From positions 1 through 64,000 of the forward strand of contig CALXXY010000002.1 in the NCBI GenBank assembly GCA_944392815.1: 64,000 bases of DNA. The letters run 5' to 3'. The stretch's first letter is position 1; every line of letters begins with the position of its first letter. Positions 2,705 through 26,601 of this stretch are shown piece after piece. The notes below the pieces were generated by a model. That model did no database searches and was not told where the DNA came from. It saw only the letters and a program-made list of their open reading frames with translations. A program made the translations under genes and the position numbers. The stretch is from an uncultured Alphaproteobacteria bacterium. GTDB taxonomy: Bacteria; Pseudomonadota; Alphaproteobacteria; Rs-D84.

Positions 2705-2742
2705 CATATTGATTTACACCCATGGTATGGTATTATAACACG

Positions 2743-2916
2743 TGATGTGGGGTGTTCCCACATTGGGCTTAAGAACCCATTGATCGCGTCCGTGATACAG
2801 ACGTTAAATAAATCCAACCAACGCGGTTGGAGTGTAGTGAATATATTGAATAAGCCACGCAATTACTACTGATTGTTCTTAAACTCCAACCACCCGATTT
2901 TTCTGGTGGTTTTTTC
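2743..2916 (+). ncRNA. Candidate structured RNA or 5' leader, copy A
   Basis: TTGATT(2709)/TATTAT(2731) promoter-like pair, 5' hairpin, closing stem gggcttaagaac/gttcttaaactc around three hairpins, then an accacc..ggtggtt-T-run terminator. Same architecture at 26048-26240. Confidence 0.55.
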
Positions 2917-2942
2917 TTAACGGAAAAAAAGGAGATAAGAAT

Positions 2943-3137
2943 ATGAAAAAGCAAATCATAATAATCGCGGGGTTGGTATCTGTAATCATGACGCCCCGGG
3001 CCCCGCGCAAACATAGTTTGCGTGGGTGGTTCTGGCGGGGGGTGGCGGTCGCCAGACCGTCGGGGGGTGGTCAGAGAGTGCAAGAATACGCACTTAGCCC
3101 CCATTGTCATCGCGAGCAAAGCGGGGCGATCCAGTAA
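2943..3137 (+). CDS. Short hypothetical ORF, possibly disrupted by repeat elements
   Basis: GGAG SD and hydrophobic N-terminus MKKQIIIIAGLVSVI; the 3' half runs into palindromic repeat sequence. Confidence 0.3.
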   Translation: MKKQIIIIAGLVSVIMTPRAPRKHSLRGWFWRGVAVARPSGGGQRVQEYALSPHCHREQSGAIQ

Positions 3138-3338
3138 ATAGAAAAAGCACTGCGGGCATTCGCCCGCAGACATATTGCACTGGATTGCCACAGTCGTACG
3201 ACAACGTTTTCAACGTTGATCGTACTCCTTCGCAATGACGGTGATATATGTCCCGCGCCGATGGCGCGGACATTATCTACACTCTATACTCTCCACTCTA
3301 CACTCTAATAAAAAACGGGGCGAATGCCCCGTTTTTTA
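3030..3338. repeat. Mosaic REP-like cluster: GGGGTGG module, inverted GTCA-tagged pair (3106-3134, 3180-3239), hairpin, heptamer run and terminator
   Basis: 3180-3239 is a reverse-complement copy of the 60-bp unit at 23769, 36994, 37461 and 37642. 3241-3338 closely matches 23828-23922. Confidence 0.85.
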
Positions 3339-3896
3339 TTTTCCTGTTGCGCGACGTTTCACGGCAACCGCTTTCTTCGCACCCGTGGCCTTGGCGGCTT
3401 TTGGTGCCTCTTTTTCAACCTTGGCCGCTGGGGCTTTGGCTGATTTTTCTTTCTTTTCCGCTTTGTCGGCAACTTTATCTGTTGCTTTTTCTGCGGCGGT
3501 GGCGGCTGGTTTCACAACCTTTTTCGCGTTTTCATCGCGATCAACCAATTCGATAATCGCCATAGGCGCAGCGTCACCGTAACGGAACCCGGCCTTTAAC
3601 ACACGGGTATAACCACCCGGGCGATTGGCATAACGCGGTCCCAAAACAGTAAACAATTTTTTAACCGCAGCGGACGAATTATTGCCCAACTGGGACGCCA
3701 CCAGGCGGCGATTTGCAACAGTGTCAACCTTGGCACGGGTAATCAATTTTTCGACAACCCCGCGCAGGTCTTTGGCCTTTGGCAAAGTAGTTTTAATCTG
3801 TTCTTTTTCAATCAAATTTTTCGCCAGCCCAATAAACAAGGCCTTGCGTGCATTAGTGTCGCGATTAAACGTGCGACCGGCTTTCATGTGTCTCAT
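3336..3896 (-). CDS. rplQ: 50S ribosomal protein L17 with Ala/Lys-rich C-terminal extension
   Basis: MRH start, [33 protein letters not shown]. Confidence 0.98.
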
Positions 3897-23308: not shown

Positions 23309-23599
23309 TCAAAATCTCTTTGTTTTTTGTACCTTTTTTATCTGCACAAAACATCTGTTCAGAATTATTTCAACGGACCACCCCGCGATTATAAATCTGT
23401 CAGAACGCGCAGAATTCTGTGTTTTTTTCTTTCCTTGTTTACACGGAAAGCGAATACACTATAACCACGAACCCGCATATTGTCAAGCAGAATTTGGGGA
23501 TTTTTGCCGAAAAAACGGCTGGAAATTCCCAAAAATCCGGGACGTACAAAATTCCCACAAAATGACAATTTTTTTATTGGTACAAAATTCATGAAACAG

Positions 23600-23922
23600 G
23601 TTCCCCCTTTGCGACGAATGTGGCTGCCGACCTCGTCCCATCGCGGGGTAAAGTTCCCCTCTGCGGAGGGGAACTAGTTCCGCGACGGGACGAAGACCAA
23701 GTTCCCCTCTGCGGAGGGGTGGCGCGCTTTGCGCGACGGGGTGGTCATTACTCGGACACTCTGCCCCTGTCATTGCGAAGGAGTACGATCAACGTTGAAA
23801 ACGTTGGCGTACAACTGCGGCAATCCAGTGGTATATGTCCCGCGCGCATGCGCGGACATTATCTACACTCTATACTCTACACTCTTCACTCTGATAAAAA
23901 ACGGGGCCACGGCCCCGTTTTT
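23600..23922. repeat. Mosaic repeat cluster: two aagttcccctctgcggagggg palindromes, GTCA-tagged 60-bp unit (23769-23828), hairpin, heptamers and terminator
   Basis: Direct copies at 23651 and 23699; other modules shared with 3030-3338 and 36990-37800. Confidence 0.85.
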
Positions 23923-23941
23923 TCATTTGATGTAAATTCAA

Positions 23942-25980: not shown

Positions 25981-26047
25981 GACGAAATAATTATACAGAT
26001 AAAAAACGAACTTGCAAAAACAAAAACAAATCTTTTATAATATGCAC

Positions 26048-26240
26048 GAATTCACAATGGATTATGTGGATTCGGGGTTCTAACAAGCCCGCAGCTCACC
26101 GGCGTACAACGCTGTCAAAAATCCCGACATATGGTCGGGGTGCCACAGGAATAAGGGTCCGCCCAAACACTGTGGAATCATAGTGAGTTGTGATTTTGTT
26201 AGCCCCCGACCACCATCAATTGTTGGTGGTTTTATTTTTT
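26048..26240 (+). ncRNA. Candidate structured RNA or 5' leader, copy B
   Basis: TTGCAA(26012)/TATAAT(26036) promoter, 5' hairpin, closing stems ggggttctaacaa/ttgttagcccc and cgcagctcac/gtgagttgtg around three hairpins, then accacc..ggtggtt-T-rich terminator. Confidence 0.6.
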
Positions 26241-26268: not shown

Positions 26269-26601
26269 ATGACACATACAAAATCCGCGCCGGACGCCAC
26301 AGACGCACGCATTGGCGAATTAATAAAACAGGCCCGCACAAAAATGGGCTATGCCCAGGCGGATTTGGGGCGTGAAATTGGCGTCACTTTTCAACAAATT
26401 CAAAAATATGAATCAGGTGCCAATAAAATCGGCGCGGCCACATTGCACAAAATTGCAAAATTTCTTGAAATCCCGGTTGCTTGGTTTTATGACGAATTGG
26501 ACAGCCCATGCCAAACGCAGAAAATCAGAAACTGCGCGACGCACCGCCCCGCATTAAACGACGCGTTTGATAATCAGGCATCTGACGCAAACGCGCAATA
26601 A
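26269..26601 (+). CDS. XRE-family helix-turn-helix regulator
   Basis: IGELIKQAR..QADLGREIGVTFQQIQKYESGANKI, typical alphaproteobacterial HTH_3 signature. Confidence 0.9.
   Translation: MTHTKSAPDATDARIGELIKQARTKMGYAQADLGREIGVTFQQIQKYESGANKIGAATLHKIAKFLEIPVAWFYDELDSPCQTQKIRNCATHRPALNDAFDNQASDANAQ

Follow-up and report, generated by a model that had tools for sequence, protein, structure and literature searches.

Two structured RNA elements lie in the first 64,000 nucleotides of contig CALXXY010000002.1 (hereafter the window), part of the 0.93-Mb genome of an uncultured alphaproteobacterium of the order Rs-D84 that is close to Candidatus Enterousia. Copy A (2743-2916) and copy B (26048-26240) are members of a leader RNA family that, we propose, probably acts as a conditional transcription attenuator, off by default and driven by an effector. 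Family members carry promoter and terminator signals, most of them stand directly before an open reading frame (ORF), and two competing folds are both preserved by compensatory change. From these features we infer that the leaders are transcribed and terminated, that the two folds serve as a switch, and in which direction the switch works.

The original prediction, drawn from the letters of the window, had presented the two elements as structural twins and taken them for a functional RNA of no recognized family. A second, competing fold, absent from that prediction, is what would turn a structured RNA into a switch.

Copies A and B belong to one RNA family

Folding each copy bears out the shared layout. 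The minimum free energy (MFE) of copy A is -53.1 kcal/mol, against a mean of -38.5 (standard deviation (sd) 3.87) for 200 shuffled sequences (z -3.8), and that of copy B is -85.1 kcal/mol against a mean of -52.8 (z -7.6); in both cases 0 of 200 shuffles were as stable. In both copies a 5' hairpin (P0) comes first, then a long closing stem beginning with GGG (P1, then P1b) and hairpins P2 to P4, with an A-rich linker after P2 and a large P4 loop opening GAAUA, and both end in an ACCACC/GGUGGUU hairpin followed by a U-run. The predicted sigma-70-like promoters are likewise in place (Table 1). One detail needs amending: gtagt/actac, proposed for the third hairpin, is indeed the MFE pairing of copy A alone, but the P4 conserved in the family is GUGUAGU/GCCACGC.

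Structural alignment of copies A and B over 154 columns gives 51% identity. They are homologs, beyond mere look-alikes, because a model of a paralog of copy A finds copy B. This model, R1, is a single-sequence covariance model, and it scores copy B at 41.3 bits (E 7.6e-10); R2, a family covariance model built from 39 A-type sequences, scores it at 54.2 bits (E 3.7e-11). MAFFT with RNAalifold misaligned the variable stems of ten copies, and Infernal alignments and the single-sequence model were used instead.

The two copies are not alone. We found 15 full-length copies in the genome, 10 of them A-type (56-84% identical to one another) and 5 B-type, plus three 5' fragments. Of the copies that blastn and nhmmer detected in the 927-kb genome, 12 are strong (E at most 2.7e-20) and 6 weak; the weak ones are 3 further B-type copies and the 3 fragments, which end after P2. 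R2 recovered the 10 A-type copies (E at most 1.6e-27), copy B and 3 more B-type copies at 40, 31 and 18.4 bits; the fifth B-type copy, on contig C8, was detected by nhmmer and Rfam.

The fragments (C1:24850-24916, L015; C1:71366-71423, L016; C1:91671-91727, L014) hold the promoter, P0, the P1 5' strand and the start of P2 before passing into unrelated sequence, signs of recombination or decay at leaders. The contig C8 copy (L013, G000:C8:14103-14360) has neither its own GGCGG-type terminator arm nor a downstream ORF; a different hairpin comes next, with U-runs flanking it on both sides.

The family extends well beyond this genome, and covariance-model searches of relatives, as the original prediction had advised, returned many homologs. 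The RpoA of the window's genome is 88-98% identical to those of animal-gut metagenome-assembled genomes named Candidatus Enterousia or "uncultured Alphaproteobacteria". Within the genus, R1 under strict filters matches 23 of the 24 other genomes; in five other families of the order it matches none of 16. R2 matches 34 of 41 genomes of Rs-D84, this genome counted, with up to 38 matches per genome (by family f1 to f6: 15/15, 4/4, 12/15, 0/1, 1/2 and 1/3). In a sample of the class with one genome per family it matches 13 of 121 genomes, or 11 of 119 outside the genus, these genome samples being draws in which not found does not equal absent. The class-level matches reach E 1.5e-16 and come from genomes of 0.9-3.5 Mb; the four that we inspected have every helix and no Rfam match. 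Some relatives in other families of the order are missing P2 or have extra hairpins between P3 and P4, with the remainder kept.

The prediction that the RNA belongs to no known family holds: a scan with Rfam 15 gave no above-threshold match to either copy, and at gathering score the whole window yielded tRNA only.

Compensatory changes maintain fold 1

The layout described above, which we call fold 1, is reached independently by all 10 A-type copies, each folding to one architecture. We aligned 91 sequences to R2, and the counts below refer to this set unless stated otherwise. Fold 1 forms standard pairs in 92.8% of cells, compared with 67.3% (sd 0.4) after shuffling and 35.8-47.0% with partners slid by 1-3 columns. 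Both sides have changed at 51 of its 55 pairs, against a shuffled mean of 40.0, and a smaller set agrees. Several such pairs occur in each of P0, P1, P1b, P2, P3, P4 and the terminator, including all pairs of P0 (8/8), P1b (8/8) and the terminator (9/9). Homologs in this genome and its relatives, together with this covariation, uphold the reading of the two copies as a functional structured RNA. Conserved letters are found as well: AAUA of the P4 loop is at least 91% conserved, and the U-run columns of the terminator are at least 90% U.

Pairing takes place at the level of RNA, with the strand fixed, because G:U pairs are common on this strand (for example, in 59 of 91 sequences at one P1 pair) and the reverse strand of the R1 seed scores 22.7 bits as against 227.7 for the forward strand.

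A second fold competes with the terminator

Fold 2 rests on complementarity between the 3' strand of P3 (GGUUGGAG-U/G) and a segment near the 3' end, (A/C)-CUCCAACC, whose bases fold 1 allots partly to the foot of P1 (CUCC) and partly to the terminator's 5' arm (AACC). More than ten sequence variants preserve the complementarity: GGUUGGAG:CUCCAACC, GGCUGGAGG:CCUCCAGCC, GGUCAGGAGG:CCUCCUGACC and GGUCGGGG:CCCCGACC; UGACUGGAAG:CUUCCAGUCG, GGACUGGGAG:CUCCCAGUCC, AGACUGGGAG:CUCCCAGUCU and GCUGGAAG:CUUCCAGC; and GUUGGGAAG:CUUCCCAAC, GGCAGGAAG:CUUCCUGCC and CGACCGGAAG:CUUCCGGUCG. Several helix variants were read by eye from program outputs. An automatic rule located a complement, 8 nt or longer, at the P3 3' strand in about 67 of 82 sequences; in most of the others it had put the terminator in the wrong place. 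Three variants of the two strands coexist in this genome, which argues that the pairing is intramolecular and not with a shared outside partner; elsewhere, too, several occur within one genome.

A further hairpin, H5 (CAAU/AUUG), flanks the 3' strand of P1b and is exclusive with P1b. Its variants include CUAU/AUAG, CUAU/GUAG, CUG/CAG, CUGU/ACAG, UCA/UGA, UCAU/AUGA and GAGCA/UGCUC, and all five of its pairs have changed on both sides.

The 91-sequence alignment was fitted to fold 1 alone. In it fold 2 pairs in 92.0% of cells, compared with 82.9% (sd 0.5) after shuffling and 32.6-63.1% when slid, and in 15 of its 18 pairs both partners have changed (shuffled mean 8.1). Two of the pairs join positions that fold 1 leaves unpaired, and both covary. 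One is G:C in 47 sequences, U:A in 27, U:G in 4 and something else in 10; the other, H5 pair 384:402, is A:U in 41, U:A in 40, C:G in 3 and something else in 5. Read by eye, these two pairs vary independently, and all four combinations are seen.

To form, fold 2 uses up four bases from the 5' arm of the terminator, along with 4-5 bases at the end of P1. ViennaRNA predictions constrained to contain the antiterminator helix include H5, P4 and P2 too, as well as a hairpin that the 5' G-run makes locally. Terminator and antiterminator are mutually exclusive, as in transcriptional riboswitches.

Promoters, downstream genes and tandem units

Signals for transcription frame the RNA on its 5' side. 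A sigma-70-like site matching at least 9 of 12 positions lies in the 55 nt upstream of 58 of 91 copies, where 11.7 would be expected from shuffles, and in 53 of these 58 the -10 hexamer stands at a fixed distance from the start of the RNA, placing the predicted transcription start at the foot of P0.

On the 3' side, a co-oriented ORF that has a Shine-Dalgarno sequence comes 18-99 nt after 14 of the 15 full-length copies in this genome. Across all genomes a simple rule, some of whose calls are doubtful, places a co-oriented ORF close behind 64 of 83 copies; among the 19 others, 6 had less than 250 nt of sequence left and at least one is the first of two tandem units. Leader and ORF are commonly about 20-35 nt apart, a gap that scarcely accommodates a second promoter, and none was sought. 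The original prediction had also named a Shine-Dalgarno sequence and a small ORF behind each copy. Both are present; what follows copy A turns out to be a gene remnant and what follows copy B a 110-aa HTH_3 regulator.

Tabulating the downstream genes, another step that had been advised, revealed a mixed set. Pfam families among 13 downstream proteins of this genome are HTH_3 (after copy B), OMP_b-brl (twice), PAP2, Autotransporter with PMP repeats, and ResIII; the other 7 have no Pfam family, and four of these are cysteine-rich secreted proteins. Behind more distant members stand N6_Mtase, N6_N4_Mtase with TypeIII_RM_meth, RgpF, OMP/Surface_Ag_2, DUF1232 and HTH_3. Restriction-modification-type genes follow L093 (G000:C2:207903-211562, with a 1219-aa ResIII helicase), L068 and L102, and include type III methylase and N6 methylase genes. 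Very small proteins (60-84 aa) that start M-x-I-G-x-x-I-E are encoded directly behind the leader in several species (L020, L023, L028, L031 and L051); they have no Pfam family and look XRE-like by eye. Outer-membrane, autotransporter and restriction-modification genes form phase-variable sets in other host-adapted bacteria, and the genes behind this family resemble such sets.

Some leaders occur in tandem. The largest array noted (L051, G042:C1:71017-71915) has four units about 70 nt apart and then one small XRE-like gene; others have three units (G054:C4:75818-76471) or two (L032). The P1b stems differ between tandem units, yet all of them pair.

A model for conditional attenuation

Combining the two folds with their setting, we propose the following mechanism. 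Each copy would be its own transcription unit of about 175-195 nt. By default the transcript would adopt fold 1, forming the 5' hairpin, P1/P1b and the P2-P4 junction, and the bases that follow would form the terminator and keep the gene off. In fold 2, the P3 3' strand (GGUUGGAGU in copy A, GGUCGGGG in copy B) would pair with ACUCCAACC (CCCCGACC in copy B) and H5 would replace P1b, yielding a three-way junction like that of sRNA-Xcc1, an Rfam family discussed below; with the terminator destroyed, polymerase would read through and the gene would be on. An effector, whether a small ligand, a protein or an RNA, would have to favor fold 2 or block fold 1 by several kcal/mol.

Predicted energies are consistent with an off default. 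For 39 A-type transcripts cut before the 3' arm of the terminator, the mean deficit in stability of fold 2 relative to fold 1 is 9.2 kcal/mol (range 0-16), and therefore the RNA alone should terminate and read-through should need a factor. Copy A has a gap of just 2.8 kcal/mol because its P1b (GAUC/GAUU) is weak, unusually so next to the 6-10 bp of its paralogs.

The sensor may be the fold-2 junction together with the P4 loop, since that core survives every architectural variant. As for what it senses, no GGDEF, DAC or RelA/SpoT domain was found in the genome (96.8% complete), which makes self-made c-di-GMP, c-di-AMP or (p)ppGpp unlikely signals. The same genome has a single NusG and no RfaH/LoaP-type paralog, so a factor of that kind is unlikely too.

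Several other devices were considered and set aside. The lack of conservation among short ORFs that start close to the 5' end or behind GGAG speaks against a leader peptide, and the 5' "NUG" is explained by a G:U pair of P0. Neither a kissing interaction between the P0 and P4 loops nor an 8-nt palindrome in the P4 loop (AAUAUAUU) is conserved across copies. A dedicated trans-acting RNA carrying GGUUGGAG was rejected as well: the motif or its complement occurs 4 times outside family copies, where about 28 occurrences would be expected by chance.

A bolder version of the proposal, which we advance tentatively and with more doubt than belief, is that the family constitutes a new class of RNA switch in which the Xcc1-like junction senses one signal and, through 10-38 leaders per genome of less than 1 Mb, would set the whole surface and accessory repertoire at once, from outer-membrane and adhesin-like secreted proteins to restriction-modification genes and XRE regulators; sRNA-Xcc1 of Xanthomonas integron cassettes and APSE phages would be a minimal, clamp-less form of the sensor and a cis-acting leader. 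The signal would then most plausibly be a metabolite or protein tied to contact with a partner or host cell.

Several observations weigh against conditional attenuation. Fold 1 is far the stabler, and fold 2 might be used rarely or in another context, for example after processing. The genes that would be controlled are too diverse to indicate a ligand and form no coherent metabolic set. Tandem arrays free of ORFs, in which each unit has its own promoter and terminator, resemble arrays of small RNA (sRNA) genes. The covariation counts rest on kindred sequences and model-fitted alignments and are not probabilities. Finally, copy A itself, with its weak P1b and a gene remnant downstream, may be decaying.

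Alternative explanations

The copies could instead be stand-alone genes for trans-acting sRNAs, with the terminated transcript of about 175 nt as the product and the position before genes incidental or a side effect of read-through. This would suit the promoter and terminator that each copy has, the tandem arrays of 2-4 full units with no ORF between them and the repeated CUCC-type segments, which are anti-Shine-Dalgarno-like; the related sRNA-Xcc1, moreover, was seen as a discrete RNA in Xanthomonas (PMC2996969) and has since been described as trans-acting in the title of Chen et al. 2011. We regard it as unlikely. The 14 of 15 copies here and 64 of 83 overall that closely precede a co-oriented ORF, with its ribosome-binding site, would be left to chance, and a conserved, covarying helix that removes the RNA's own terminator would be superfluous for a pure sRNA. 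In addition, candidate seed segments are paired in the default fold, and GGTTGGAG or its complement occurs just 4 times outside family copies, which leaves no obvious targets or partners. An sRNA role and attenuation could coexist, the tandem arrays being the main point for the former.

Less likely again is a constitutive leader module, a 5' stabilizer, insulator or "portable promoter" that would set a fixed low expression by partial termination and without an effector. 5' hairpins at the transcript start are typical of mRNA stabilizers such as the ompA 5' untranslated region, and P0 does start right at the predicted transcription start. That fold 1 is far stabler than fold 2, that no ligand can be deduced, and that the genes are of very many kinds, horizontally mobile ones (restriction-modification, XRE) among them, would also fit. 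Such a module leaves unexplained, however, the compensatory upkeep of the antiterminator helix and H5 across the order and class, and likewise the retention of a P3 5' strand that competes with the 3' segment.

A selfish or recombinational DNA repeat (a MITE, a REP element or a patch for surface-gene shuffling, its hairpins being DNA palindromes) is very improbable: the family is multi-copy with shortened members (C1:24850, C1:71366 and C1:91671), copy A was duplicated together with the first 17 codons of its gene, and true palindromic repeats abound in the genome, for instance at about 2966-3387, but copies only 56-84% identical keep every helix by compensatory change, G:U pairs occur on one strand only (reverse 22.7 versus 227.7 bits), position is fixed relative to promoter, terminator and start codon, and the flanks, inspected by eye and with no dedicated test made, show no terminal inverted repeats or target duplications.

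Implications

Conditional attenuation, if correct, would give this family an unusual weight in its hosts. Rs-D84/Enterousia bacteria are uncultured, have genomes below 1 Mb that are without amino-acid, nucleotide and lipid pathways, and are thought to depend on other cells (PMC12306168). Leaders controlling the envelope and accessory genes would be in keeping with such a partner-dependent life. The RNA fills up to roughly 0.7% of a genome (38 copies of about 180 nt in about 1 Mb) and precedes most recognizable envelope and accessory genes, so that it would be the main gene-control device and a handle on the signal to which the cells respond. The family lends itself to experiment: compensatory change clearly backs both folds, termination is an easy read-out, and natural variants number in the dozens. 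It can likewise be tested whether sRNA-Xcc1, an Rfam family of unsettled function, forms the core of a cis-acting switch on mobile genes.

Features and surroundings of the two copies

Positions of the parts of both copies are collected in Table 1.

Table 1. Parts of copies A and B in the window, with their promoter-like sites and downstream genes
Feature	Position	Strand	Description
Copy A promoter-like site	2709..2736	+	-35 TTGATT, 16-nt spacer, TG-extended -10 TATTAT; 9/12 match
Copy A P0, 5'-terminal hairpin	2744..2764	+	Predicted fold; loop GGUGUUCC
Copy A P1 5' strand	2765..2776	+	GGGCUUAAGAAC; partner 2875-2887
Copy A local hairpin, fold 2 option	GGG of P1 5' strand with CCC 2776-2778	+	4/4 pairs changed on both sides
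Copy A P1b 5' strand	2782..2785	+	GAUC; partner 2871-2874
Copy A P2 hairpin	2786..2804	+	GCGUC...GACGU; A-rich linker 2805-2812 comes next
Copy A P3 hairpin	2813..2831	+	UCCAACC/GGUUGGA; predicted fold
Copy A P3 3' strand	2825-2833	+	GGUUGGAGU; 5' half of the alternative antiterminator helix
Copy A P4	2832..2860	+	GUGUAGU/GCCACGC, arms 2832-2838 and 2854-2860; conserved 15-nt loop GAAUAUAUUGAAUAA 2839-2853
Copy A H5, fold 2 only	2860..2875	+	CAAUU/GAUUG; encloses P1b 3' strand, exclusive with P1b; found by RNAalifold
Copy A 3' segment	2883..2891	+	ACUCCAACC; fold 1: P1 (CUCC) and terminator (AACC); fold 2: all pairs with 2825-2833
Copy A intrinsic terminator	2888..2915	+	AACCACC, 10-nt loop, GGUGGUU, U-run; predicted fold
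Shine-Dalgarno and ORF after copy A	2930..3137	+	AGGAG 2930-2934; 64-codon ORF 2943-3137, without Pfam family
Copy B promoter-like site	26012..26041	+	TTGCAA-18-TATAAT; 10/12 match
Copy B, B-type member	26048..26240	+	Covariance models R1 and R2
Copy B P0	26048-26073	+	
Copy B P1	26074-26087 with 26195-26207	+	
Copy B P1b	26090-26099 with 26183-26192	+	
Copy B P2	26100-26114	+	
Copy B P3	26121-26141	+	
Copy B P4	26143-26175	+	Inner stem present
Copy B 3' segment	26204-26211	+	CCCCGACC; complement of GGUCGGGG 26133-26140
Copy B terminator	26208-26231	+	U-run follows; called by terminator tool
Gene after copy B	26269..26601	+	110-aa XRE-type regulator; Pfam HTH_3 E 9.2e-14

The terminator-calling tool missed the terminator of copy A, yet it is present in the predicted fold; its long loop is probably the reason for the miss. 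The ORF behind copy A is a cut-down remnant of a gene for a cysteine-rich secreted protein, because only its first 17 codons match the gene after the paralog on contig C4 before it enters a repeat. The XRE-type gene behind copy B begins 32 nt beyond the RNA-model match.

Twelve sequencing runs were available as assembled contigs, which show no RNA ends; RNA is on record for two of them, with a share of 0.06 each. In RNA run X5 a single 104-nt contig (depth 2.06) covers 2813-2902 with 7 differences and 1 gap, DNA carry-over being possible, and it probably stems from a paralog or relative.

Right behind copy A lie palindromic REP-like repeats, a block (2966-3387) that truncates the copy's gene. 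Over this block the summed contig depth in two metagenome runs rises from about 20-30 to 266-1111. Such repeats recur at about 23480-23940, and ORF translations reveal the repeat near 23700-23940. At the edge of the window, positions 3-1667 of the minus strand encode a large secreted protein of at least 555 aa that runs off the window; it has a signal peptide, a long low-complexity stretch rich in Ala, Thr and Arg, and a cysteine-rich C-terminal part.

Relation to sRNA-Xcc1 and other known systems

Permissive Rfam scans of both copies, four B-type copies and four class-level loci returned one recurrent resemblance, sub-threshold matches to sRNA-Xcc1 (RF02221) on B-type copies. Weak matches to RUF1, MIR7504, Prevotella-2 and similar families were far below their thresholds and were taken as chance. 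RF02221, whose threshold is 53 bits, matches four of the five B-type copies at full length and in register, with scores of 23.4 (copy B, at 26133-26219), 29.7, 32.9 and 36.5 bits, the last being the best in the genome (C8:14133-14224, L013). Copy A, at E-values up to 10, has no match, and neither has one B-type copy.

The likeness lies in fold 2. In the B-type alignments the closing stem of RF02221 is exactly the fold-2 helix, and the elements of fold 2 follow the Rfam consensus in order: a closing stem (8-10 bp, of the GGNCGGGG/CCCCGNCC type), hairpin 1 with loop letters more or less of the AUACAA...GAA type, hairpin 2 adjoining it, a linker of 6-8 nt and an ACC tail. The three-way junction of RF02221, with its closing stem of about 9 bp, two adjacent hairpins, 6-nt linker and ACC-type 3' tail, appears in fold 2 only, where the closing stem and hairpin 2 (H5) covary. 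In hairpin 1, where RF02221 has an AUACAA/GAA internal loop and a capped inner stem, B-type copies L011-L013 have AUACAACAG, an inner stem and GAAA; the corresponding parts of copy B are GGAAUAAG, an inner stem and AAACA. A-type copies differ, having GAAUA-UAUU-GAAUAA and no inner stem in hairpin 1. More broadly, the present family adds a 5' half (P0, the 5' strands of P1 and P1b, P2 and the P3 5' strand) that competes with the Xcc1-like fold, as well as a canonical intrinsic terminator; the high-scoring sRNA-Xcc1 loci that we inspected have no clear 5' extension and no such terminator.

In 121 genomes of the class, RF02221 matches at E up to 0.01 occur in 24 genomes, a count that includes this genome and the unpublished G103 (sub-threshold only), and they pass the threshold in 5; scores form a continuum from 70 down to 28 bits. 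Sub-threshold RF02221 matches fall inside strong R2 matches at G041:C2:55270-55453, G041:C4:23051-23234 and G169:C1:115504-115688, and one 46-bit match (L110) carries the 5' extension of the present family, with an XRE gene behind it. The window RNAs are therefore not members of sRNA-Xcc1 by the score that Rfam sets; they are probably distant relatives with an added competing 5' half and terminator.

sRNA-Xcc1 itself reportedly acts in trans (title of Chen et al. 2011, RNA Biology). Bona fide copies lie 30-54 nt before co-oriented ORFs at 5 of 8 loci by rule, and at one more by eye. Three bona fide copies (55.8-57.9 bits), spaced very nearly 1 kb apart in the L105 region of one alphaproteobacterial genome (G077:C1:749745-751817), look like a cassette array. 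In Xanthomonas campestris the RNA was detected as a discrete species of about 88-100 nt by Northern blot and end mapping (PMC2996969). Among Xanthomonas integron cassettes, the most widespread one carries it ahead of symE (bioRxiv 10.1101/2025.06.18.660453), and some APSE phages have it ahead of an ORF6N gene (bioRxiv 10.1101/2020.03.17.996009). A possible carriage of the present family by phages was examined and rejected: the pattern GGTTGGAG-N40-70-CTCCAACC occurs in at least 120 viral-contig stretches, 0 of the 80 loci examined match R2, and the hits are chance matches of a self-complementary pattern. The portions consulted of the literature on sRNA-Xcc1, Enterousia and Rs-D84 riboswitches do not describe this RNA.

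Among established leader classes, SAM-I, yybP-ykoY, NiCo, T-box, c-di-GMP and others in Rfam 15 gave no match even at permissive E-values, and the comparisons that follow concern architecture and setting. With REP, BIME and MITE elements the family shares a multi-copy, hairpin-rich, intergenic character and the occurrence of fragments; it differs from them in strand-specific G:U pairing, in compensatory upkeep between diverged copies and in its fixed frame of promoter, terminator and ORF.

The c-di-GMP-I (GEMM) riboswitches are multi-copy leaders before diverse genes for surface and secreted proteins. The present family resembles them in its many copies per genome before mixed envelope, adhesin-like and regulator genes, and differs in having no Rfam match and in a host genome where no GGDEF domain was found. 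T-box leaders are likewise a multi-copy family, in which tRNA acting in trans stabilizes an antiterminator. They share with our model default termination, the contest of antiterminator and terminator and the need for an outside factor; the differences are that Rfam finds no T-box match, that the genes are not of aminoacyl-tRNA or amino-acid function and that no specifier-like element was identified.

The SAM-I riboswitch and the pbuE adenine "on" switch are transcriptional riboswitches that join a junction aptamer to a terminator/antiterminator platform. Unlike these, the present family has no metabolic-pathway regulon, reaches far more copies per Mb and includes tandem units with their own promoters. 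It nevertheless shares with them a promoter-proximal, covarying fold and two exclusive structures that draw on the same terminator strand, placed directly before an ORF.

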